Below are positions 1-63,982 of a stretch of 64,000 nt of DNA, piece by piece. A model generated the notes under the pieces. The model worked only from the letters and a program-made list of their open reading frames with translations. It was not told where the DNA came from and searched no databases. The stretch lies in the sequence record MK562504.1; one strand, written 5' to 3'. Source of the stretch: Enterobacteria phage CHB7. Each line of letters starts with the position of its first letter. Position 1 is the stretch's first letter. The position numbers were made by a program, and so were the translations under genes.

Positions 1-2367
1 TTAATCGAAAGCCTGAGTTCCTTCAGGGATGCACTTAACATCAAATCCTAAGAACTGACCAACTTCAACAGGACTTACTTTATTCCAGTCTAAGTTAGAA
101 AGCAAGAAGTTTTCTGCTTTACGTGCTGTGAAGTACACACTCAGTTTCTGCTTAATACGTTCTCTGGCATTGTAGATTGCAGAGTGTACCTTACTCTTAG
201 CTCTTGTCAAGCGTTGTAAGTCATGCAGAACACTTGTAACGTCCTTATAAGCAATCGGTGAAGCAACATAAGCCAGCTTACCAAACATTGCTTCTACAGC
301 CTCTTCATTCCCTTCCAAGAAGATACGTTTGCTGTAATCAGCACTGTAGACATAACCTCTTGAGCACTTCTTATCACCAAACTGGAACGTTCTGGCAATA
401 ACACCTTTATCAGTGATATCACAGTTTGAACTACACCATTCACGAGTTACAAAACGGTTAAACTCAATCCAGTGAATATCAGTGATAGAGTCTTTGAAGA
501 CTTGCTGATTCACTTCTAACCAGTCTTCAGGAATCTTCTTCCAGTTTGCTTTACGGAACACATAAACCGACTGTCCAGTTAAGCGTGCCATTACCTTTGC
601 AGCAGACTCTGGAGTGCAACTAAAAATTCCACCAAGGACTTCATCACTCTGTGCTTTGATATAGTACTGAGGTTCTTCAATATCATCAAAGTTCTCTTTT
701 ACTTCTGTATAAGATACACCGTGTTCATGTACAGAAGCTTTGTAGAGTTTTACAACACCACGAGTAACAGTACGCTTCACATAGTGATGCTCTTTGTCAG
801 ACATTTTAACAATCGTCAACATACTCTTATCAATCATGTGGAGATTAATAAACTGGTCTAACTCTTGCTCATCAGAGAACACATAAACAATACCGTTGTA
901 GCGACGGAAGTTCGGTTCTTCATTTTCACGGTCACGACAAGCGCCACGGATAATCTGATTGCGTCCTACAGTCTTTTCAGTACCATTTTTGTTTCGACGG
1001 TCATTGATAAGGAACAAATAGTTAGACATTTTGTTCTTACTCATTGCACCGAAGATACTGAAGTTCGCACCTTCCTGAGTGTACATCGCTGAAGTTGCAC
1101 GAATCTTATTTTCCAGTTGACTATACTTGAAGTAAGCAACAGGCTCATACAGATTCCCAATAACAGGAATGTGATTACCGCTCTTATCAACAAGCAAAGT
1201 TCCATTGTCATCAGTGGCAAACTTTGGAGTGCCATCTGCGTTACTCAACTGTCCTTGACGAATCTTTAAAAGTTTCTGCTCAAGGTCTGCTAAGCTCTGA
1301 CCATTCCACTCAAGACGGGTAAACACATGCTGGAAGATTTCACGAGAGTTAGCTCGTAAGTCTGCATAAGCCTGTGCAGCGTCTGCCAAGGTTGGTTCGT
1401 TGTCAATACGTTTTACTACATCTTCGACAATCGTCGCAGTAATCTTTTTAACTGCATCTGTAATTGCTTTCTTAGTGGTCTCATTCATCTGCAATGCTTC
1501 ACGAGACGCAGCGATAGCCACTGAACCAATCGGCATGTAGATGTTAACAAGGTCTACAGCATTACGGAAGAATGTAGGAAGAACACTGGTGAACTCTGCA
1601 CCAAGTAAATCTCCTAAGTCAACCGGATAAGCAATATTACCCATAACAACGTTGAAATTTGTCTGGTTATTACTTGAACGCCAGTTCTCTTTATACTTCA
1701 TCGCATCGTAAACACCATCTTCACGAACAATGGTAGTCATCTCGCTAAGGATATCACGGTATTCTACGTTGCATTCTGGTTTCAGTTTGAAGTAAGAGAA
1801 GACATTACTTGCTTCTTCATGAAACTTCTGGATACGATGGTCAGCTACTGCAACACGAACTGCTAAACCATTTGGTTCGGTAGTCGGGTTTGTCGTCAGT
1901 TTAGTAACTTGAGGAATACCATTCTCAAGGTATACAGAGTACTTGTTAACTACGCCGTCTACGTAGCTGGACACGGTGAATGACTGTGCAATTGCAAAAG
2001 GTGACTTTGAACCGATACCCATAGCACCGATGTAGTCGTTTGAGTCATTCTTAGTAGAAGCTCCATAGTTCAGGTACAGAGACATAACCTTCTCATGGGT
2101 CAGGCCAGTACCGAAGTCACGAACTTCAAAGTATGGGTCGAAACGAGTTGGCAGGTGTACACGGAATGGTACATCCTCTTTTCCAGCTTCTTTGTGAGTA
2201 TCTACAGCGTTACAAGACAACTCACGAATTACAGCACGTTCTTTAAAAGTGTAAACACCTGAACTTAACAGGCTGAACATTTCAGGAGTCATCGTAATAG
2301 ATGCCTGAGAAGTTTCTAATGAAGATGAACTCTTAATCACCTCTGCGTGGTCATTTACCATGCGCAT
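1..2367 (-). CDS. rIIA: rIIA-like GHKL (Bergerat-fold) ATPase, 788 aa
   Basis: Translation carries an N-box (ERAVIRELSCNAVD), G1 box (VRDFGTGLT) and G2 box (GAMGIGSKS) typical of HATPase_c domains; TAA stop at 1-3. Assignment to rIIA is by analogy with T4-like rIIA, from memory. Confidence 0.5.
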   Translation of the reverse strand: MRMVNDHAEVIKSSSSLETSQASITMTPEMFSLLSSGVYTFKERAVIRELSCNAVDTHKEAGKEDVPFRVHLPTRFDPYFEVRDFGTGLTHEKVMSLYLNYGASTKNDSNDYIGAMGIGSKSPFAIAQSFTVSSYVDGVVNKYSVYLENGIPQVTKLTTNPTTEPNGLAVRVAVADHRIQKFHEEASNVFSYFKLKPECNVEYRDILSEMTTIVREDGVYDAMKYKENWRSSNNQTNFNVVMGNIAYPVDLGDLLGAEFTSVLPTFFRNAVDLVNIYMPIGSVAIAASREALQMNETTKKAITDAVKKITATIVEDVVKRIDNEPTLADAAQAYADLRANSREIFQHVFTRLEWNGQSLADLEQKLLKIRQGQLSNADGTPKFATDDNGTLLVDKSGNHIPVIGNLYEPVAYFKYSQLENKIRATSAMYTQEGANFSIFGAMSKNKMSNYLFLINDRRNKNGTEKTVGRNQIIRGACRDRENEEPNFRRYNGIVYVFSDEQELDQFINLHMIDKSMLTIVKMSDKEHHYVKRTVTRGVVKLYKASVHEHGVSYTEVKENFDDIEEPQYYIKAQSDEVLGGIFSCTPESAAKVMARLTGQSVYVFRKANWKKIPEDWLEVNQQVFKDSITDIHWIEFNRFVTREWCSSNCDITDKGVIARTFQFGDKKCSRGYVYSADYSKRIFLEGNEEAVEAMFGKLAYVASPIAYKDVTSVLHDLQRLTRAKSKVHSAIYNARERIKQKLSVYFTARKAENFLLSNLDWNKVSPVEVGQFLGFDVKCIPEGTQAFD

Positions 2368-2430
2368 AATAACTTTCCTCTTGGGTTGTTTGATGCATAG
2401 ACTTTAAAGAACTCTGCACTGATTGTCAAA

Positions 2431-8157: not shown

Positions 8158-8552
8158 TCTACTACCTCCACTTCAATCTTCTCATAAGACATAACATATT
8201 CTGGACAGTGTTTGTAAATGAAGTCTTGCAAGATTTTACTATCTTGTGCATCAGTCATCAAGGCTACATACTTAGGATTCATCTTCTGAATGTAGCTGTA
8301 GAATGAGATATCACCAATCTCAGTTCCCCAATCATCGTCCCAAGTACCTGTTATGATAATGATTTTATCAAGTAACCAATCAGGAACTACTAAGTTTTCA
8401 TCCTCCTTGATTGAGTCAATGAGTTCTTGAGTTATGGTAAGTTCACTGGTTAGGTAAAAACTGGAACCACGACGATGCTCTTTCTCACACTTTCCATCAT
8501 CTAACGTGCATTCCTTCAACACTTCCATTAACGCTTTGGAGATTTTAAACAT
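8154..8552 (-). CDS. hypothetical protein (132 aa)
   Basis: Intact ORF with 4-nt overlap to nrdG. Confidence 0.4.
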   Translation of the reverse strand: MFKISKALMEVLKECTLDDGKCEKEHRRGSSFYLTSELTITQELIDSIKEDENLVVPDWLLDKIIIITGTWDDDWGTEIGDISFYSYIQKMNPKYVALMTDAQDSKILQDFIYKHCPEYVMSYEKIEVEVVE

Positions 8553-8706
8553 TTTAACTTTCCTCTTAAGTCACAATAAAGGAGTCCTAGAAAGAACCCT
8601 AGTGAGATAGAACCGATGAATAAACCAATTATGTTCTCTGCCATATCTAACATCCAATAAAAAGGTGATGCAAGCCTATCAAGACCTACACCACCTTGTC
8701 AACTAC

Positions 8707-9162
8707 TTACTTAAACCTACAACAATCTTTGTGGAGTTCCTTTCTCAGTTTCTTCATAAAATCAACAGCTTCCTCAAACTTTTCAAATCTTCTTGAAACC
8801 GTTTTCTTGTTATATGTTACTGAAGCTCTCCATCTTCTTCTTGTAGAGTCCCAAGATACACCTTTAAATCCAGTTTTGTTATCCTCTCGCAATTTAGCAT
8901 TGCAAGCATTGTCAACTTTGTTAGAGGCTCTTAGGTTTATCCACCTGTTATCATCCTTGATACCATTTATGTGGTCTACTAATTCAGGAGCATCTTCACC
9001 CATCAAAGTGAAAGCTAATCTATGAGCATACTGTTTTGAACCATCTGGTAGTTCAATTAGTATGTATCCACTAGTTATCCTGCTTCCAGCCACATCTCCA
9101 CTATCTTTCCATCTTATCTCCCCATTATCCGGGTTATAGTCAAGAAAATTAGCTACATACAT
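8707..9162 (-). CDS. HNH homing endonuclease with AP2-type DNA-binding domain
   Basis: HNH core (AHRLAF...VDHINGIKDDNRWINLR) followed by an AP2-like segment (GFKGVSWDSTRRRWRA). Confidence 0.7.
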   Translation of the reverse strand: MYVANFLDYNPDNGEIRWKDSGDVAGSRITSGYILIELPDGSKQYAHRLAFTLMGEDAPELVDHINGIKDDNRWINLRASNKVDNACNAKLREDNKTGFKGVSWDSTRRRWRASVTYNKKTVSRRFEKFEEAVDFMKKLRKELHKDCCRFK

Positions 9163-35465: not shown

Positions 35466-37811
35466 TTATGCCGTTCTAACCCAAGCCATCAATCTGATAA
35501 ACATATTTACAACACTGAATGCAGAACCAGAACCAGTACCACCAGTGTTACCACTCAATGTGTGGCTGTGAGCACCAATACCAACTGTATGCGTGTGAGC
35601 ACCAGCGGAAGCAGCAGTACCACTAACTGAGTGGGTGTGAGCACCAGCGGAACCAGTGTTGATGTTCCCATAGTTGGTTTTAGAACCAGCACCAACATAA
35701 CCAGTATATTCACCATTCCACGTCTGGTGAGCAGCCATACCATGAACGTGAGCACCAGCGGAAGCAGCAGTACCTGAAACACCATGTGTGTGAGCACCAG
35801 TGCTGTTGGAGGTCTTAGTACCATAGTCGAAGCTTGATGTTGTCGCTGAGAAGCTATGGGTGTGTGAAGGGATGTTGCCTACAGCTAATGTCACAGTATC
35901 TGCACCACCAGTAGTTTTAACATCTGAACCGTTTGCTGCACCGATTCTGACAGTTCTACCAACACCTTCATTTAGATACGTCCAAGTTAATCCCGGAAGG
36001 GTAGTGTTAGGGTTCTGGTTAGTTGCAAACCATGTTACAATACCAACTGGATAAATCTTCTTAAGGTCTGTAGAGTTAGTGATAGCAGCAGAAATTTTAG
36101 CATCAGTTTCTGCCTTAGTGTATGCACCTACATCTCCAGCAGATGGTTTATCAGTTGAGGTGTAAATCTTAGACCAATCTACCTCGAACCCAAAAGCGTC
36201 TCTTGAAGACCTGTAGAAGATACCACCATTTTTGTAGTTGAAACGCAACTGTGCAGAAGGGCATGAACCCTGTGCTTGGTAGAGTTGCAGAATCATCTGT
36301 GAACCACCACCAACAAGGACATTATACAGCCCTGACTTAGCATTCCAAGGAACTGCGTTAAAATCTGTTGAAGTATATGCACCAGTTGCACCAGCTAACA
36401 TAAATCTTGAGTTAGCAGCAGACTGTGTAAAGTATCGTGCATCAAAGTTACCCCAATCAGAAGGTTGAACCTGTCCAGTAATTGCCAAAGTTTTGTTTGC
36501 AGTGATTGTTGAGCCAAGTGTTAGCGTTGAACCATCCACATAGTTTGACAAAACAAGGTTGTTATTGTTGGCACTTCCATTACCCACATACCATCTCATG
36601 GTTCCATCGGAATCAACACCTCTCAAGTAAAGAGCGGCCTGTTTTGTTGCATTTTTCAGCATCAAAGCTTCATTATCAGATGTGATATTTTGCTTTACGC
36701 TGAAGTTGTTTGTTGCGTTAACTCTTGCCAAACTCGATAGTGTTCCGGCAGGAATAAATCTTGAATCAATATTAGTCCAGTCACTAGGTTGAACCTGTCC
36801 AGTAATTGCAAGACTCTTGTTAACTCTTACCATATTGTCAAGTAATACGTAGGTATCGTTTGAGATATTTGTTAAGACAACTGAGTTGCTACCATCTGCA
36901 TAGTTACCTACAGCCCACTTCATAGAAGCATCTGTGTTCTGACCTTCAATATAAAGTGCTTTACCACTTGTCAAGTTCTTAAGAGTTAATCTTGCACCGT
37001 CACCAAGTAACGTTGTAGTCCCTCTGAAGGTGTTGTTTCCAGTAATCGTGTTAGCTGCTGCCAACTGAACAAATCTTTGGTCTGCTGCATCACGAGTATA
37101 GAATCTTGCATCGAAGTTTGCAAAGTCTGAAGGAACAACCTGTCCAGTAACTTGAAGCTGTTTGTTAATCCCTACAGAGCCAGTGCCAAGAACAATATTA
37201 GTGTTCTGTTTGGTGTTTGCAATAGTAACATCAGAACCAGAACTCAAGTTACCAATTGTGAATCTTACTGCATTTGCTGTATCACGACCTTCATAATACA
37301 ATGCAGCAGCCGCAGTGTTCTTTAAAGTTAAACCTGCATTGTCTGTCTGAAAAATCTGACTTGCTGTGAAGGTGTTTTGAGTTCCCTTGATAGCAAACCT
37401 TGCATCATTCTCATCATTAGTTCTCATCCCAAGTTCATTAGGGGATGGCTTATTCAGAGTATGGTAAACTGTTGCATTTCTTGAAGCATCTGCAATAGTC
37501 AGTTTAAGACCATTTGCATTAAGCTTGAAAGTTTTTGCAGTGTCACCGAAGACAATTTCAGAGTTACCTGTTGGGTCAAGTAAATCTTTTCCTCCATAGG
37601 TAAGCTTGACAATCCCTAAATTACCTGTCATGGTTCCACCAACTAATTGCAGAAATCTTTCCAGCTTGAAAGATGCAAGGAAATCTGCATAAGTCATTCT
37701 ACGGTCTTCATCACCTAACATCTCAGTTCTTTTCTTAACTCTGACATGTAATAGGTCATCAGAACGAATTTCGTTAATCGAGTTCAGTTCACTCAATTTA
37801 AATTCTGCCAT
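35466..37811 (-). CDS. tail fibre protein with His-X-His repeat tip
   Basis: 781 aa, Gly/Thr/Asn-rich; C-terminal iterated GAHTHSVSGTAASAGAHVH / HSHTLSG units. AAGAGGA ribosome-binding site and terminator hairpin immediately upstream. Confidence 0.6.
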   Translation of the reverse strand: MAEFKLSELNSINEIRSDDLLHVRVKKRTEMLGDEDRRMTYADFLASFKLERFLQLVGGTMTGNLGIVKLTYGGKDLLDPTGNSEIVFGDTAKTFKLNANGLKLTIADASRNATVYHTLNKPSPNELGMRTNDENDARFAIKGTQNTFTASQIFQTDNAGLTLKNTAAAALYYEGRDTANAVRFTIGNLSSGSDVTIANTKQNTNIVLGTGSVGINKQLQVTGQVVPSDFANFDARFYTRDAADQRFVQLAAANTITGNNTFRGTTTLLGDGARLTLKNLTSGKALYIEGQNTDASMKWAVGNYADGSNSVVLTNISNDTYVLLDNMVRVNKSLAITGQVQPSDWTNIDSRFIPAGTLSSLARVNATNNFSVKQNITSDNEALMLKNATKQAALYLRGVDSDGTMRWYVGNGSANNNNLVLSNYVDGSTLTLGSTITANKTLAITGQVQPSDWGNFDARYFTQSAANSRFMLAGATGAYTSTDFNAVPWNAKSGLYNVLVGGGSQMILQLYQAQGSCPSAQLRFNYKNGGIFYRSSRDAFGFEVDWSKIYTSTDKPSAGDVGAYTKAETDAKISAAITNSTDLKKIYPVGIVTWFATNQNPNTTLPGLTWTYLNEGVGRTVRIGAANGSDVKTTGGADTVTLAVGNIPSHTHSFSATTSSFDYGTKTSNSTGAHTHGVSGTAASAGAHVHGMAAHQTWNGEYTGYVGAGSKTNYGNINTGSAGAHTHSVSGTAASAGAHTHTVGIGAHSHTLSGNTGGTGSGSAFSVVNMFIRLMAWVRTA

Positions 37812-37853: not shown

Positions 37854-39165
37854 TTAAGCAGTTCTTTGCCATACATACAGTACGAAAGATGGCTGTTCAA
37901 CGTTGAATGCCTGCCCAGAACCAGTTGACCCTGTTGTACCAGAGTGGGAATGTTCACCTGCTCCAGTGACAGATACAGACACATTGTGATTATGTGAACC
38001 AATAGCCACTGTGTGACTGTGAGAGCCGATTGCCACTGTATGTGTATGAGCACCAGCATTAGCCGCAGTACCACTCACTGAGTGAGTATGGTTACCAGCA
38101 GCCTGAGTATCAGACCAGTAAGCCACTTTTGGTGTGTAGTCATCACCAGATGTGTAGATACCCCCACCACCAGAGTTAACCTCACCTTCTGGAACCTTGT
38201 GAGTGTGGTTACCAGCAGTTGCCGCAGTACCACTAACCGAGTGTGTGTGAGCACCAGCATTGCTGGTCGTCTTTGTACCATAGTCAAAGGTAGTTGAAGA
38301 CTTAGTACCATAGTCAAATGCGCTGATAGACACACTAGTACCGTGTGAGTGACCACCGCCTGTAACATACACTGAGTGAGTGTGAGCAGGAATATTGTTT
38401 GCAGTCAAAGCCACAGTTTGGGAACCAAATGTGGAACCTGCTGGTCTAGCTGCACTGTCCACTAGTACCGTGTGAGTGACCACCGCCTGTAACATACACT
38501 GAGTGAGTGTGAGCAGGAATATTGTTTGCAGTCAAAGCCACAGTTTGGGAACCAAATGTGGAACCTGCTGGTCTAGCTGCACTGTCATAACCCACAAGTG
38601 CTCTACCTTTTGATACTAGCTCCCAAGTACCTCCACAAATCAAGTAAGTGGATGGGTTAGCAGCATTCATAGACAAGTGAATAGTCCCAACTGGATATGA
38701 AGCCTGAACAGCCCTGTATAGACTATTAACTGCTCTTGCTGTAGCATACTTATCAGCATCTTCATTATATGCGTTAGAAGCTAACCAGTTCTGCACATTA
38801 CCTAAACCGACTTGTGATTTAGTTGTGTTGTGAGGGTTATTCTTATCATTAATGTGAGCCTGAATAAGTTGGTTAACTTCATCAGAAGACATGATTTGCA
38901 AGTTTGCTCTTGCTTCAGCGACGTCAACGATATCTGATAGGTTGTTTGCAGCGACAAGCTGTAAAGCGTTTAATACGTTACCTAATTCAACCTGAACCTT
39001 TGTAACGCCGTGAGGGTTATTTCTCAATGATGCGTGTGGGTCAAGTAATTGTTCAAGTGTACACCTCTTATCCTCAATACCTTGTTTAAGGTGGAAGATA
39101 TCACTTAGCTCAATTGGTAACGATGCTTGAGGCAAGGCACTAATTTGAATTTCACCTACTGCCAT
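37854..39165 (-). pseudogene. second tail fibre gene, frameshifted by a 127-bp tandem duplication
   Basis: Track ORFs 38446..39165 and 37854..38495 both encode the same 42-aa segment DSAARPAGSTFGSQTVALTANNIPAHTHSVYVTGGGHSHGTS; removing one repeat copy restores a single ORF of about 394 aa. Confidence 0.55.
38333..38586. repeat. perfect 127-bp direct tandem duplication (2 copies)
   Basis: 38333..38459 and 38460..38586 are identical by eye (CACTAGTACCGTGTGAGTGACC...CTGGTCTAGCTGCACTGTC). Confidence 0.85.
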
Positions 39166-39167
39166 TA

Positions 39168-39482
39168 TTAGCCTCCAATAAATTCATAAGTGTACTGGTT
39201 AGTTGTACTTGTTGGAGCAGTCCCTGTCACGGTATTAATAAGGCTCCATCCAGCCGATACTAAATCAGGTTGCTCGGTAGCAAAGCTTCTAACTTCACCT
39301 ACAATAGCTGTTGTCCCATTTGCCCTTTCCAACAAATAGTTTAAAATATAATTATACCACTGACGACCCATTGGCTCACCACGTAGTAAACCTGTTGCCT
39401 GAATCTCAGGAGGTGGTAACACTTTTAACTGGTTACCATCAGCGTCTACATCATCTGTAGCCCATCTTACTGCATCTGCCAT
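39168..39482 (-). CDS. hypothetical tail/baseplate-associated protein (104 aa)
   Basis: Intact ORF between the baseplate genes and the tail fibre. Confidence 0.35.
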
Positions 39483-48405: not shown

Positions 48406-49758
48406 TTATTCGTAAGCCACTGTACCTTTCAAGTCAACATCCAAGATAGCACCTGCTAAGATACCTGCGAAGGTAACATCTTTCAGGATACGAGCTTTCT
48501 TGTCTGCCAAAGCAACTTGAGAGGCTTTAGGAACATTAACTGTGTAAGATGACAGGAAGTTTCTGTTAACTGCTCTTTGCAGAGAGGTTTCAATGACCTG
48601 ACGAATACGGGTAATACCTGTATCATCATAAGTAATCTTACCACCCTTCTGATTAATTAGCAAGTCTCTCAGAGAAGTTTTCAAGTCAGATTCTAGCCAG
48701 TCAACACCACGGATGATATCAATCCATTCACCACCAGAAGTGACACCTCTACGTACAACTGGAACACCACCATCAAGGTCGATGAAGTTGCAGTGACGTA
48801 CATCCAAAGCGGATTTCTGAATGCTTGTCAGAGGTCTCTGGTTAGCTGGCTGAAGAGACGCTTCAACACCAGTCAACTGAGCATTACCCCAAGCAATTGA
48901 ACCTGCATCATACGGAGCACCGTAAGCGATGTAAGCCATTTCTGGGTAATCATAGGTAGCAGTGTGATGCCACAAGCAGACTGTACGAGTGTACATGCTC
49001 TTGGCAAGCTGTGCAGGAACATCAGAAGCTGATTCTAGTTCGGTTCCTTGCAGGGCAGCTACATCTGCGTTTGCTGTGAAGAAAATCTTCTTACGAGCCT
49101 GAATTTCTGAAGCCATTGCCAAGATGAACTGAGAAGTTCTGTCTTCAGCAGAGATGAAGTACCAATCTGTAGAGTACGTCTCAATAGCAGCCAAAGCACT
49201 TGCAGCAGTGTCAGAAGTTGTAGCAGCGATTGATACAGAGCTTGTAGTTGAGGTAACTTTTACAAAGTCATTGTCACCAGCTTTTGTAACAATCATGGTT
49301 GCGGAGCTACCAGTACCAGTTACGTTGATAGTAACATCATCTTTGATTGTTGGGTCAGCTTCAATCTGGTCTTTAAACTGCGTCAGAACAATCAGAGCAG
49401 TGTCATCAGCTTGTGCAGTGTATTGGTATGGCTGAGAAACGCCACCACCTACAGCAATCGTCAGAGAGTAATCTGTACTTTCAGCTACTTCATCAGGGAT
49501 TGACACTGTGTACTGCATAGCACGTCTACCAATATATAGCTGAGTTACTTTTGGAGTTTGGCTCCATAACTGTCTTGCAGCTTTATAAGCAGCAGAGTTT
49601 TCATCGAAATCTTCAGCAACTTCAGTCAGAGAGGTATAGCCACGAACCCTTTCTTCAAAGTTGTCAGTTGACGCTAAGAATAATGGTAGACCAAAACCTT
49701 CTCTCGTAGTTCCTGCGGTGTTCAATGTAATATCTACATTAACAATTGGATTCCACAT
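48406..49758 (-). CDS. tail sheath (or major tail) protein
   Basis: 450 aa; largest tail-shaft ORF, followed by a small tube-like gene. Confidence 0.4.
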   Translation of the reverse strand: MWNPIVNVDITLNTAGTTREGFGLPLFLASTDNFEERVRGYTSLTEVAEDFDENSAAYKAARQLWSQTPKVTQLYIGRRAMQYTVSIPDEVAESTDYSLTIAVGGGVSQPYQYTAQADDTALIVLTQFKDQIEADPTIKDDVTINVTGTGSSATMIVTKAGDNDFVKVTSTTSSVSIAATTSDTAASALAAIETYSTDWYFISAEDRTSQFILAMASEIQARKKIFFTANADVAALQGTELESASDVPAQLAKSMYTRTVCLWHHTATYDYPEMAYIAYGAPYDAGSIAWGNAQLTGVEASLQPANQRPLTSIQKSALDVRHCNFIDLDGGVPVVRRGVTSGGEWIDIIRGVDWLESDLKTSLRDLLINQKGGKITYDDTGITRIRQVIETSLQRAVNRNFLSSYTVNVPKASQVALADKKARILKDVTFAGILAGAILDVDLKGTVAYE

Positions 49759-61472: not shown

Positions 61473-61547
61473 TGGAGCATCCAGAGGGAATCGAACCCTC
61501 AACCTCAGTTTGGAAGACTGTAATTTTCCCGTTTAAACTATGGATGC
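61473..61547 (-). tRNA. tRNA-Gly (UCC)
   Basis: Anticodon loop CTTCCAA, T-loop TTCGATT, CCA. Confidence 0.6.
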
Positions 61548-61553
61548 ACTAAT

Positions 61554-61629
61554 TGGTGGAGAAGCAGGGAATTGAACCCTGTACTTAAGTTTGCAAAACT
61601 TATGTTTTAACCATGTAAACTACATCCCC
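61554..61629 (-). tRNA. tRNA-Ala (UGC)
   Basis: Anticodon loop TTTGCAA; G3-U70 wobble in the acceptor stem; T-loop TTCAATT; CCA. Confidence 0.65.
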
Positions 61630-61635
61630 AATGTT

Positions 61636-61711
61636 TGGTACAGGTGGAGGGAATTGAACCCATCGTCTTACTGATTAAGAGTCAGCCGCATAACCATTTT
61701 GCTACACCTGC
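61636..61711 (-). tRNA. tRNA-Lys (CUU)
   Basis: Anticodon loop CTCTTAA, T-loop TTCAATT, CCA. Confidence 0.6.
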
Positions 61712-61718
61712 ATTAATT

Positions 61719-61796
61719 TGGTAGGAGACAAGGGATTCGAACCCTCAAACACCAACTTCTAAGGATGGTAGGTTTACCAATTACCGTCAATCTCCC
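61719..61796 (-). tRNA. tRNA with anticodon UAG (Leu by anticodon), short variable region
   Basis: Anticodon loop CTTAGAA in an arm nearly identical to the Val(UAC) tRNA; T-loop TTCGAAT; CCA. Confidence 0.5.
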
Positions 61797-62024
61797 ATTA
61801 AATCTTTGTAGAGAACTGCTAAGACGCCAAAGCAACAATGGTATCAAATGCCTTAACAATTCTCTAAAAAGACCTAACTGGTCTTTGCATAGTCTTGTTT
61901 AATCCGGTGACTAGAACCTTTGGAGAGCTTGATATTATCTCTTCTCCGTGACACCTACTAGGTGCTTTGTTGTGCGTGTACGACAATACACGAGGGAAAC
62001 CGAACGCTGTACCAGAGCGTGGGC

Positions 62025-62366
62025 TTAAATCTTTAAGCTAAGTTCAGTCTTGGACTTGACATCTTTAGCTTTGTAGATGACGACTTTATCAAGTGGTTCA
62101 ATGTAAACAGCTAAGTAATCAACTTGAGAGTTATCAAAATTCATTATTCTATTTTCATTCTTGTTAGAACGAACTCTTTTCAGTTGCACTCTCCAAAGTT
62201 CACCTCTTTTGACTGATGTTGATTTTACCTCAACAGTCTCAATCAAACCATCTTTGTGAACTAGAAAGTCATACTTTGCATTATCTGTAGCTGGTGAATA
62301 CACTTCATAACCTCTTTTGAGGAAAGCTAATTGTGTAGCAATTTCACCTACTGAACCTTTCTTCAT
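62025..62366 (-). CDS. PD-(D/E)xK-type nuclease-like protein (113 aa) inside the tRNA array
   Basis: GSVGEIATQLAFLKRGYEV...DFLV...IETVEVKS has the spacing of a restriction-endonuclease-like core. Start set at ATG 62366 with an AAGGTGGTGA ribosome-binding site; the track extension runs into tRNAs. Confidence 0.45.
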   Translation of the reverse strand: MKKGSVGEIATQLAFLKRGYEVYSPATDNAKYDFLVHKDGLIETVEVKSTSVKRGELWRVQLKRVRSNKNENRIMNFDNSQVDYLAVYIEPLDKVVIYKAKDVKSKTELSLKI

Positions 62367-62388
62367 AATCACCACCTTAAAATTATTT

Positions 62389-62475
62389 TGGCAGAGAGTG
62401 CAGGAGTTGAACCCGTACCGTTTCCAGCAGCACCAGTTTTCAAGGCTGGTTGGTCTCCGTTGACCGCCACTCTCT
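62389..62475 (-). tRNA. tRNA-Ser (UGA), long variable arm
   Basis: Anticodon loop CTTGAAA, extended variable arm, T-loop TTCAACT, CCA. Confidence 0.55.
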
Positions 62476-62488
62476 CCGAAACAATCTT

Positions 62489-62571
62489 TGGCATGGGACG
62501 GAGGAATCGAACCCCTTTGAGTAAGTTTTGGAGGCTTACGCACATGCCTTAGTGTCTTAACATCGTCCCAT
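62489..62571 (-). tRNA. tRNA-Trp (CCA), atypical 83-nt form
   Basis: Anticodon stem GTAAG/CTTAC with loop CTCCAAA; T-loop TTCGATT; CCA; acceptor ATGGGAC/GTCCCAT. About 7 extra nt between acceptor and D-stem. Confidence 0.45.
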
Positions 62572-62713
62572 ATATTATTTCGAAGCTTACCGTATTATCA
62601 CAACACTGTAAAGCCCCTTCTCAGATTATTTACATGTTCTGGAAAACATGAGATACAGACCACCTCCCTACAGGAAGACCCGCTTAGGTCGTCTAAGTAA
62701 TCTGCTAACTATT

Positions 62714-62790
62714 TGGTAGCCAAGGTAGGAGTCGAACCTACTTACTCTCGAAGGTAGCTAACCTTCAGTAACTTTCCGACTTTCGTACAT
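62714..62790 (-). ncRNA. tRNA-like element / possible degenerate tRNA
   Basis: Perfect T-arm (GTAGG-TTCGACT-CCTAC) and 3' ...CTTGGCTACCA, plus a perfect GAAGG-TTAGCTA-CCTTC stem-loop, but I could not pair a 5' acceptor strand at a tRNA-compatible distance. Confidence 0.3.
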
Positions 62791-62840
62791 CTGTTAACAT
62801 GTATTCAGATGGCTTACTAGTGTTGTCTTGACCATTAAAC

Positions 62841-62917
62841 TGGCACACCCTACAGGACTCGAACCTGTAACTCAGTGCTTAGAAGGCACTTGCTCTATCC
62901 AATTGAACTAAGGGTGC
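62841..62917 (-). tRNA. tRNA-Arg (UCU)
   Basis: Perfect anticodon stem AGTGC/GCACT, loop CTTCTAA; T-loop TTCGAGT; CCA. Confidence 0.65.
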
Positions 62918-63167
62918 ATTCTTATCTTTAAAGGCTCTCTTAGAAAACCCTTAAAGATGCCCACATTATTAATCATACCGTGGGCGAGTACGCCAAATTC
63001 TTTGATGAGGGGTTGGAAGACCTCACTGGTGTTTAGCCTATTAAGCTACTGCCAGAAAAACATTATCGTTTGCATTTATTTTAGTTTGCAAAAATAGACG
63101 CTACGCTAACGAAAACTAAGGTTACTATAAAGTGGTCACATCTGAATGTCAACAACTTTATCGAATT

Positions 63168-63243
63168 TGGTAGTGGTAGCAGGAATCGAACCTGCGATGT
63201 TCGGTTATCAGCCGAGTGTTATGACCGTCTTAACTATACCACC
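63168..63243 (-). tRNA. tRNA-Ile (GAU)
   Basis: Anticodon loop CTGATAA, T-loop TTCGATT, CCA. Confidence 0.65.
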
Positions 63244-63245
63244 AT

Positions 63246-63322
63246 TGGAGGTTCAGATGGGATTCGAACCCACATTCATAGGGCTTATGAAACCCTTGCA
63301 TTACCTTATCTGCGACTGAACC
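63246..63322 (-). tRNA. tRNA-Met (CAU)
   Basis: Perfect acceptor GGTTCAG/CTGAACC, anticodon loop TTCATAA, T-loop TTCGAAT, CCA. Initiator, elongator or Ile2 identity not resolved. Confidence 0.65.
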
Positions 63323-63331
63323 ATAATAAGT

Positions 63332-63396
63332 TGCCCTTTGGAGAAGAACTATTGAGTGGGTGTTTCCAGCCGCGCAGGTGTTCTTCAGTTAAGGGC
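63332..63396. other. long imperfect inverted repeat
   Basis: GCCCTT...GAAGAAC...(GC-rich loop CCAGCCGCGCAGG)...GTTCTTC...AAGGGC forms a two-tier stem of about 65 nt between two tRNAs. Confidence 0.35.
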
Positions 63397-63401
63397 TAAT
63401 T

Positions 63402-63477
63402 TGGTAGGAGTGGAGGGATTCGAACCCTTCGCCTGTCAGATTAAAAGTCTGCCGCATCACCATTCTGCTACACTCCC
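63402..63477 (-). tRNA. tRNA-Lys (UUU)
   Basis: Anticodon loop CTTTTAA, T-loop TTCGAAT, CCA. Confidence 0.6.
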
Positions 63478-63659
63478 ATTGAATCATCTTTGCAGTAACC
63501 TACGCAAACCTTGCTAAAGGGTTTGTAGAGTCATTTCCTATTAAGCTAATCTAGAATCATGCTAAGGAAATTCATCGGCACTCATGGGACGACATTTAGC
63601 TCCATAAGTCACTGCAAAGAGGATTACCAGACCGTTGTTTATCTTAAGTGCTCCCATTA

Positions 63660-63745
63660 CACCAACACGCCGTAACGTGTGAAGGAATCGAACCTTCGCC
63701 TTTTCTTTACCAGAGAAATAGATTGTTTTATACTTGCTGTAAACG
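63660..63745 (-). ncRNA. tRNA remnant / pseudo-tRNA (putative)
   Basis: Good T-arm (GAAGG-TTCGATT-CCTTC) and a perfect anticodon-like arm (TTTCT-CTGGTAA-AGAAA), but no matching acceptor stem and no CCA. Confidence 0.25.
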
Positions 63746-63904
63746 GTCTTCTGTAAATTTGTTGAGCCAGACCAAGTTTTAAATTTTTCAAAATTAAATT
63801 GGCTTGAAATTTTTTAAGTTGGCTTGCTGAATTTGGTCTTCTGCTCCTTTAAAGAACACTCGTAAGAACTCTTTAAGGGAGGGGCTAAAAAGCCCTCTCA
63901 AATT

Positions 63905-63982
63905 TGGCGGTTACGAAGGGATTCGAACCCTCATCATCTCCCGTGACAGGGGAGTATTTTAACCAGATTAAACTACATAACC
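63905..63982 (-). tRNA. tRNA-Asp (GUC)
   Basis: Perfect anticodon stem CTCCC/GGGAG, loop CTGTCAC; T-loop TTCGAAT; CCA. Confidence 0.65.

Follow-up and report, generated by a model that had tools for sequence, protein, structure and literature searches.

The short tail fibre (STF) gene of this phage is written as two overlapping reading frames with a perfect tandem repeat inside the gene. This raises the question whether the duplication is present in the phage DNA or whether it entered the sequence during assembly. The window, by which we mean the whole stretch of 64,000 nucleotides that was analyzed, had been inspected before. An earlier note on this DNA offered three possible explanations for the repeat: a switch by phase variation, a mutation acquired during laboratory passage, or an assembly artefact.

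Tandem repeat and split reading frame

By direct string comparison the two 127-nt strings at 38333-38459 and 38460-38586 are adjacent and identical. Tandem Repeats Finder scored the repeat at 508 with 100% matches, 2.0 copies and a period of 127. Both results confirm the two identical adjacent copies that the earlier note had reported. In the coding direction of the gene, the copy at 38333-38459 is the second one and the copy at 38460-38586 is the first one. A perfect tandem match of 127 nt cannot have originated by chance in 64 kb. Besides this pair, a repeat search of the whole 64-kb window revealed no other long perfect repeats. The copies abut bluntly with an extension of 0 nt on either side and without microhomology, and the flanks of the endpoints show 3/20 and 5/20 matches, which corresponds to the random level. 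The novel junction is located between 38459 and 38460 and reads …GCTGCACTGTC before and CACTAGTACCG… after the join; in a second rendering its flanks are …GGTCTAGCTGCACTGTC and CACTAGTACCGTGTG…. The blunt join was dropped as a discriminator, since about 56% of random junctions likewise show zero extension. The span from 38250 to 38650 comprises 401 bp with two copies and 274 bp with one.

The repeat lies in the STF gene (37854..39165, minus strand), which is interrupted as written. The upstream ORF (38446..39165, minus strand, 239 aa) consists of the native residues 1-235 followed by the out-of-frame residues GQCS and a stop, and the downstream ORF (37854..38495, minus strand, 213 aa) starts with 12 out-of-frame residues and continues with the native residues 194-394. 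Both ORFs overlap by 50 nt (38446-38495), and the 42-aa segment DSAARPAGSTFGSQTVALTANNIPAHTHSVYVTGGGHSHGTS is present in each of them. Since 127 is 3 x 42 + 1, the repeat has the appearance of a frameshift in the STF gene. Deletion of one 127-bp copy resulted in a single unbroken ORF of 1185 nt, i.e. 394 aa. An uninterrupted ORF of about 380-415 aa is lacking in the gene as written and is present once one copy has been removed. It had been proposed that a fibre gene of about 394 aa is split into two overlapping ORFs because 127 is not a multiple of 3, and this was borne out by the ORF coordinates together with the one-copy ORF.

Identity of the fibre and translation of the split gene

Judged from its sequence, the window derives from a Felix O1-like myovirus of the genus Suspvirus (Ounavirinae). 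Over 16 kb it shares about 96% identity with Escherichia phage mistaenkt, and megablast against a phage collection gave identities of at most 92% at the STF locus and at most 96% elsewhere. When the 239-aa ORF and the 781-aa fibre encoded next to the STF were looked up as exact sequences, no match was obtained. A 2025 cryo-EM study of Bas63 (JohannRWettstein, Felixounavirus) assigned gp23 and gp24 as wedge proteins, gp25 as the platform of the long tail fibre (LTF), gp26 as the 430-Å STF and gp27 as the LTF (PMC12609058). In the window the gene order of 489 aa, 285 aa, 104 aa, STF and 781 aa equals that of bas63_0023 to bas63_0027, so that the order wedge 2, wedge 1, LTF platform, STF and LTF is common to both phages. 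Because of this gene order and the cryo-EM assignments in Bas63, the split gene is identified, on comparative grounds, as orthologous to Bas63 gp26, which is the STF in Felix O1-like phages, and to SUSP2 gp025 and mistaenkt_84. The one-copy STF is about 75% identical to Bas63 gp26 (tblastn), and the two proteins share the Gp10_C-like collar and the HxH motifs of the needle. They differ in that gp26 has 382 aa and 7 HxH motifs, whereas the one-copy STF has 394 aa and 9 motifs. Moreover, the one-copy STF matches Pfam Gp10_C at aa 154-271 (2.5e-19), falls in the tail fibre family phrog_2097 (PHROG 2097) and matches the receptor-binding tip of T4 gp37 (2XGF) at aa 145-364 with E=8e-25.

The genes on both sides of the STF gene are intact. 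Directly upstream lies the LTF-platform gene (39168..39482, minus strand), the ortholog of Bas63 gp25, which is 99% identical to mistaenkt_85 and the position of which matches bas63_0025; its role is taken from the Bas63 study (PMC12609058). Directly downstream lies the LTF gene (35466..37811, minus strand), the ortholog of Bas63 gp27, in which the Pfam domains gp37_trimer, gp37_C and Gp10_C were found.

The duplicated unit corresponds to aa 194-236 of the STF, where the collar region ends and the first two HxH motifs lie. In Bas63, where the STF was observed in the virion by cryo-EM, its tip is composed of collar, HxH needle and head, and the chain returns from the head to the collar (PMC12609058). 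With a chain that goes out to the tip and comes back, a protein ending at residue 235 would lack most of the needle as well as the head. The one-copy STF has nine HxH motifs, two of which are kept by the 239-aa ORF; the product of this ORF would thus miss seven of the nine motifs, the head and the returning strands. The native STF start is preceded by the Shine-Dalgarno sequence GGAGG. No Shine-Dalgarno sequence was found before the ATG of the 213-aa ORF, and a separate translation of this ORF is therefore unlikely.

It is conceivable in principle that the fibre is expressed despite the duplication by programmed frameshifting or by re-initiation, which would lead either to a fibre with a 42-aa repeat or to two cooperating polypeptides. 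The 50-nt overlap of the ORFs at 38446-38495 and a CCCAAAC heptamer in each copy would be in line with such a mechanism. However, a +1 shift is needed here, whereas CCCAAAC is a heptamer of the -1 type and, read in the codons TCC CAA ACT, has the wrong phase; the second CCCAAAC falls beyond the stop codon. A programmed ribosomal frameshift was therefore rejected, as this sole heptamer has the wrong phase and the wrong direction, and re-initiation was rejected because the downstream ATG has no Shine-Dalgarno sequence. Besides, the split arrangement occurs in no homolog. A gp37-type chain must go out and back through the needle, and two separate pieces, or 42 aa inserted where the collar and the first HxH region lie, are unlikely to fold. 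When we searched the sequence for a translational rescue of the two-copy STF gene, no plausible route to a functional fibre emerged. We consider the probability that the fibre is expressed in this way to be close to negligible.

Intact single-copy gene in relatives

The earlier note had recommended to look in related genomes for an intact gene with a single copy, and the gene is intact in all of those examined. The locus corresponds to one CDS of 1149 nt and 382 aa in SUSP2, mistaenkt and PC79-13. A DNA alignment showed that the one-copy STF gene is collinear end to end with these three phages and that the extra 127 nt are present only in the window. By tblastn, at least 80% of the one-copy STF is matched in one place by about 292 phage records. 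A search of 5.8 billion proteins yielded 56 clusters of 360-460 aa that span at least 99% of the one-copy STF, and 48 of the 49 closest clusters (at least 42% identity, 100% coverage) have a length of 382-415 aa. The 42-aa segment is present once in each of the aligned close homologs (5/5). Copy-number variation of the 127-bp unit was not observed among the relatives and homologs examined.

The STF gene is also the only one that is split across frames among the approximately 85 CDS common to the window and mistaenkt. The alignments of the short CDS mist_31, mist_78 and mist_114 stay in one frame and span only 89-95% of the respective CDS, and the remaining mistaenkt counterparts are full-length in one frame, most of them at 95-100% identity. 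Most likely, the STF of the actual phage is a single intact protein of 394 aa in three parts: an N-terminal part that binds the baseplate, a collar domain (Gp10_C-like), and an HxH needle with the tip, which resembles gp37.

Start of the record and origin of the repeat

The rIIA gene is located at 1..2367 on the minus strand, and its stop codon coincides with window bases 1-3, which read TTA, the reverse complement of TAA. Positions 1-2367 contain no internal stops, and the rIIA of mistaenkt maps to the window from 2367 down to 4 (tblastn). In Moogle NC_027293 and Silverhawkium MK562505, rIIA is annotated as complement(1..2373). For Moogle, Mijalis, Michonne, vB_EcoM_3HA14, KPS64 and Silverhawkium, megablast revealed that the offset in the query equals the offset in the record on the same strand, with equal offsets of 242/242, 232/232, 233/233 and 21/21 in the matches to Moogle-type records. 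Since the rIIA stop is located at this site and related records share the same start and strand, window base 1 can be regarded as a conventional start chosen by hand. Very probably a deposited record starts at this base, having been re-opened there by convention.

We are confident that the duplication is an artefact of assembly rather than a feature of the phage DNA. The largest k accepted by SPAdes is 127. Short reads would have been assembled at this final k, presumably by SPAdes, and a circular or circularly permuted genome would then lead to a contig with the same 127 bases first and last. If this contig was re-opened at the rIIA boundary, as in the Moogle-type records, and the overlap was presumably left untrimmed, the old contig ends would have been joined inside the record. 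The result would be a perfect tandem repeat of 127 bp with a blunt join at an arbitrary site, which by chance would have fallen within the STF gene. In a close variant, two contigs of the SPAdes graph with an overlap of k would have been concatenated without trimming. The two versions are inseparable here. We prefer the circular overlap, as the window contains no other repeat of at least 127 nt; a contig break at a genomic repeat of this length was rejected for the same reason.

Artefacts of this kind have been described. A 127-bp artefactual terminal repeat which needs to be trimmed was reported for SPAdes contigs of phages (PMC5923482, PMC11210271, PMC7372960, PMC8104045), and the SPAdes k series (usually 21-127) as well as the 127-bp overlap are documented (PMC11210271, PMC7372960). 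In the case of phage U136B, 127 bp were cut off and the genome was then reopened for synteny with the reference (PMC8104045). Similarly, internal repeats of about 79 bp in SPAdes/Shovill phage assemblies were identified as artefacts by Sanger sequencing (PMC10438801), and according to the INPHARED preprint SPAdes yields artefactual DTRs. A published description of the internal 127-bp form was not found, the internal repeats of about 79 bp being the nearest case (PMC10438801).

At the STF locus the repeat has the length of k, its copies are identical and blunt, the record is rotated and the duplication is absent from relatives. Our confidence is based on three of the observations taken together, namely the length that equals the SPAdes k exactly, the rotated record and the fact that the STF gene is the sole broken gene. 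Among the three options of the earlier note, the assembly artefact is thus favoured because 127 is a SPAdes k, the record was re-opened, no other gene is broken and relatives have a single copy. Phase variation and laboratory passage gained no positive support.

Against an artefact it can be argued that a real duplication may just happen to measure 127 nt. Such a duplication would be recent, having arisen in nature or in the laboratory, and would inactivate the STF, which would be tolerated since the LTF suffices on the propagation host. Fibre genes are hot spots of recombination, the repeat sits at the transition from the conserved to the variable part of the STF gene, and the neighbouring LTF gene is intact. 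The requirement of the STF for infection is unexplored (PMC8594841), and a laboratory host might support a phage whose STF is knocked out. The perfect identity of the copies is compatible with a very recent event as well; the earlier note had concluded from it that the event is very recent, and this part holds only if the duplication is present in the DNA. Nevertheless, a real event would have to coincide exactly with the SPAdes k of 127 in a genome that was demonstrably re-opened, and the endpoints of the junction are without homology. All of the examined relatives and homolog clusters have an uninterrupted STF gene, which implies strong purifying selection. Moreover, a perfect 127-bp repeat should be unstable, and in-frame revertants would be expected to outgrow the defective phage. 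A real and recent duplication is therefore distinctly unlikely. We also considered that the repeat was placed exactly on a mosaic breakpoint between co-infecting phages. This was rejected, as there is no sharp coincidence and the copies are identical instead of being parental variants; the divergence of the STF increases little by little, beginning at the upstream edge of the unit, and peaks downstream.

In a reversible on/off switch, recombination would add or remove one 127-bp unit and thereby turn STF expression on or off and change the host range. It would suit such a switch that the frame is kept with one copy and lost with two, and that the affected protein bears a gp37-like receptor-binding tip. 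However, neither a repeat nor copy-number variation was found at the STF site in relatives. A genome with one copy has nothing to slip on, and each step from on to off would be a fresh illegitimate duplication, which is unlike simple-sequence contingency loci. In addition, the junction was found neither in IMG/VR (38-mer, 0 matches) nor in JGI metagenome contigs (32-mer, 0 matches), and this absence counts weakly against a circulating two-copy form. A 31-mer of the unit, representing the exact allele, likewise gave 0 matches in IMG/VR and in metagenome contigs, which is uninformative and leaves no identical sequence with a single copy for comparison. As all points against a real duplication hold against a switch too, we judge the latter to be highly improbable. 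It is also very unlikely that the two-copy form is real and alternates with the one-copy form in the population, with recombination restoring the STF at a measurable rate. If this was true, a lysate would be a mixture of STF-minus and STF-plus particles that differ in adsorption or host range, and the repeat would represent a crude bet-hedging switch on a receptor-binding protein.

Variability of the fibre genes and further observations

Both receptor-binding fibres diverge from the nearest sequenced relative. In the STF the N-terminal two-thirds are conserved and the tip is variable, with the identity to relatives dropping from about 95% to 20-50% between positions ~38600 and ~38000. In the central tip (37980-38290, minus strand) the nucleotide identity to the closest Suspvirus relatives is 20-50%, compared with about 95% upstream (30-nt windows). 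The STF in the window is 12 aa longer than in relatives and has extra HxH motifs, and the closest protein found, on a Logan contig, is 85% identical. The tip region looks like a swapped receptor-binding module. At 37985-38055 there is a tandem array with a period of 27 nt (2.6 copies, 70% matches) which encodes HxH units of the 'HSHTVAIGS' type and corresponds to the 'repeat_region' 49332-49388 of mistaenkt.

The LTF (35466-37811, minus strand) is 77% identical to mistaenkt_83 over its full length, compared with 98-100% for its neighbours, and is 48 aa longer than that of mistaenkt (781 vs 733 aa). The C-terminal HxH regions of LTF (35590-35839) and STF (38041-38296) share stretches of 60-97 nt with 62-78% identity. 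These stretches form the families D1 and D2 with the motif GAHTHSVSGTAA.AG.H.H, and their similarity could mediate an exchange between both fibre genes. A further match to the Felix O1-like fibre locus, with about 80% nucleotide identity, was obtained for 'Campylobacter phage A132' MG065664.1 (70.7 kb). This is unexpected for a Campylobacter phage and suggests that the record is mislabelled or contaminated.

Outside the fibre locus, a cluster of 21 tRNA genes is located at 58936-63982 (minus strand). The HNH homing endonucleases mistaenkt_113 and mistaenkt_115, which lie in the tRNA cluster of mistaenkt, have no counterpart in the window, pointing to a presence/absence polymorphism of such genes. 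Between the orthologs of mistaenkt_41 and mistaenkt_42 (8552-9156) lie about 600 nt, compared with about 157 nt in mistaenkt, which suggests an extra small insertion or gene at this place.

Consequences for the record

The doubling of the 127 bp is most likely no biological feature, and the gene that it interrupts is a typical representative of a fibre family already known. If the repeat is an artefact, its biological meaning is nil, its practical consequences remain and its value is that of a curation flag. The deposited sequence would then probably exceed the true one by 127 bp, and a single protein of 394 aa would be the appropriate annotation of the STF. As the record stands, a conserved receptor-binding fibre would be annotated as two fragments or as a pseudogene, and a false loss of function would enter host-range prediction, pangenome analyses and quality pipelines. 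The signature can be screened for: a perfect tandem repeat with the length of a common k (55, 77, 99 or 127) in a genome that starts on a gene boundary. If, on the other hand, the duplication was real, it would represent a natural knockout of a Felix O1-type STF and would reveal whether the STF is dispensable.

Comparison with known systems

The host-range duplications in T4 gp37 are similar to the repeat in that a tandem duplication lies inside the distal part containing HxH motifs. The duplications of gp37 described by Tétart et al. in 1996 and 1998 are reportedly in frame, with endpoints in conserved His-box motifs, and are said to give functional adhesins. In contrast, the duplication in the window is out of frame (127 mod 3 = 1) and its product is truncated. 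A His-box-mediated duplication of the gp37 type was rejected, since the repeat is out of frame and its endpoints agree at only 3/20 and 5/20 positions.

With contingency loci, invertible fibre segments and DGRs the locus shares that a repeat changes the frame of a surface or receptor-binding gene, and nothing else. Contingency loci differ from it, as no short simple-sequence tract is present here and the 'off' form is unique to the window sequence.

The terminal overlap of SPAdes contigs is found, as in our case, in a phage genome, with exactly 127 nt, perfect identity and an arbitrary position relative to genes. The difference is that the known form is located at the sequence ends, whereas the copies in the window are internal and adjacent. 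Internal, adjacent copies are what would be expected if the contig had been re-opened at rIIA before trimming.
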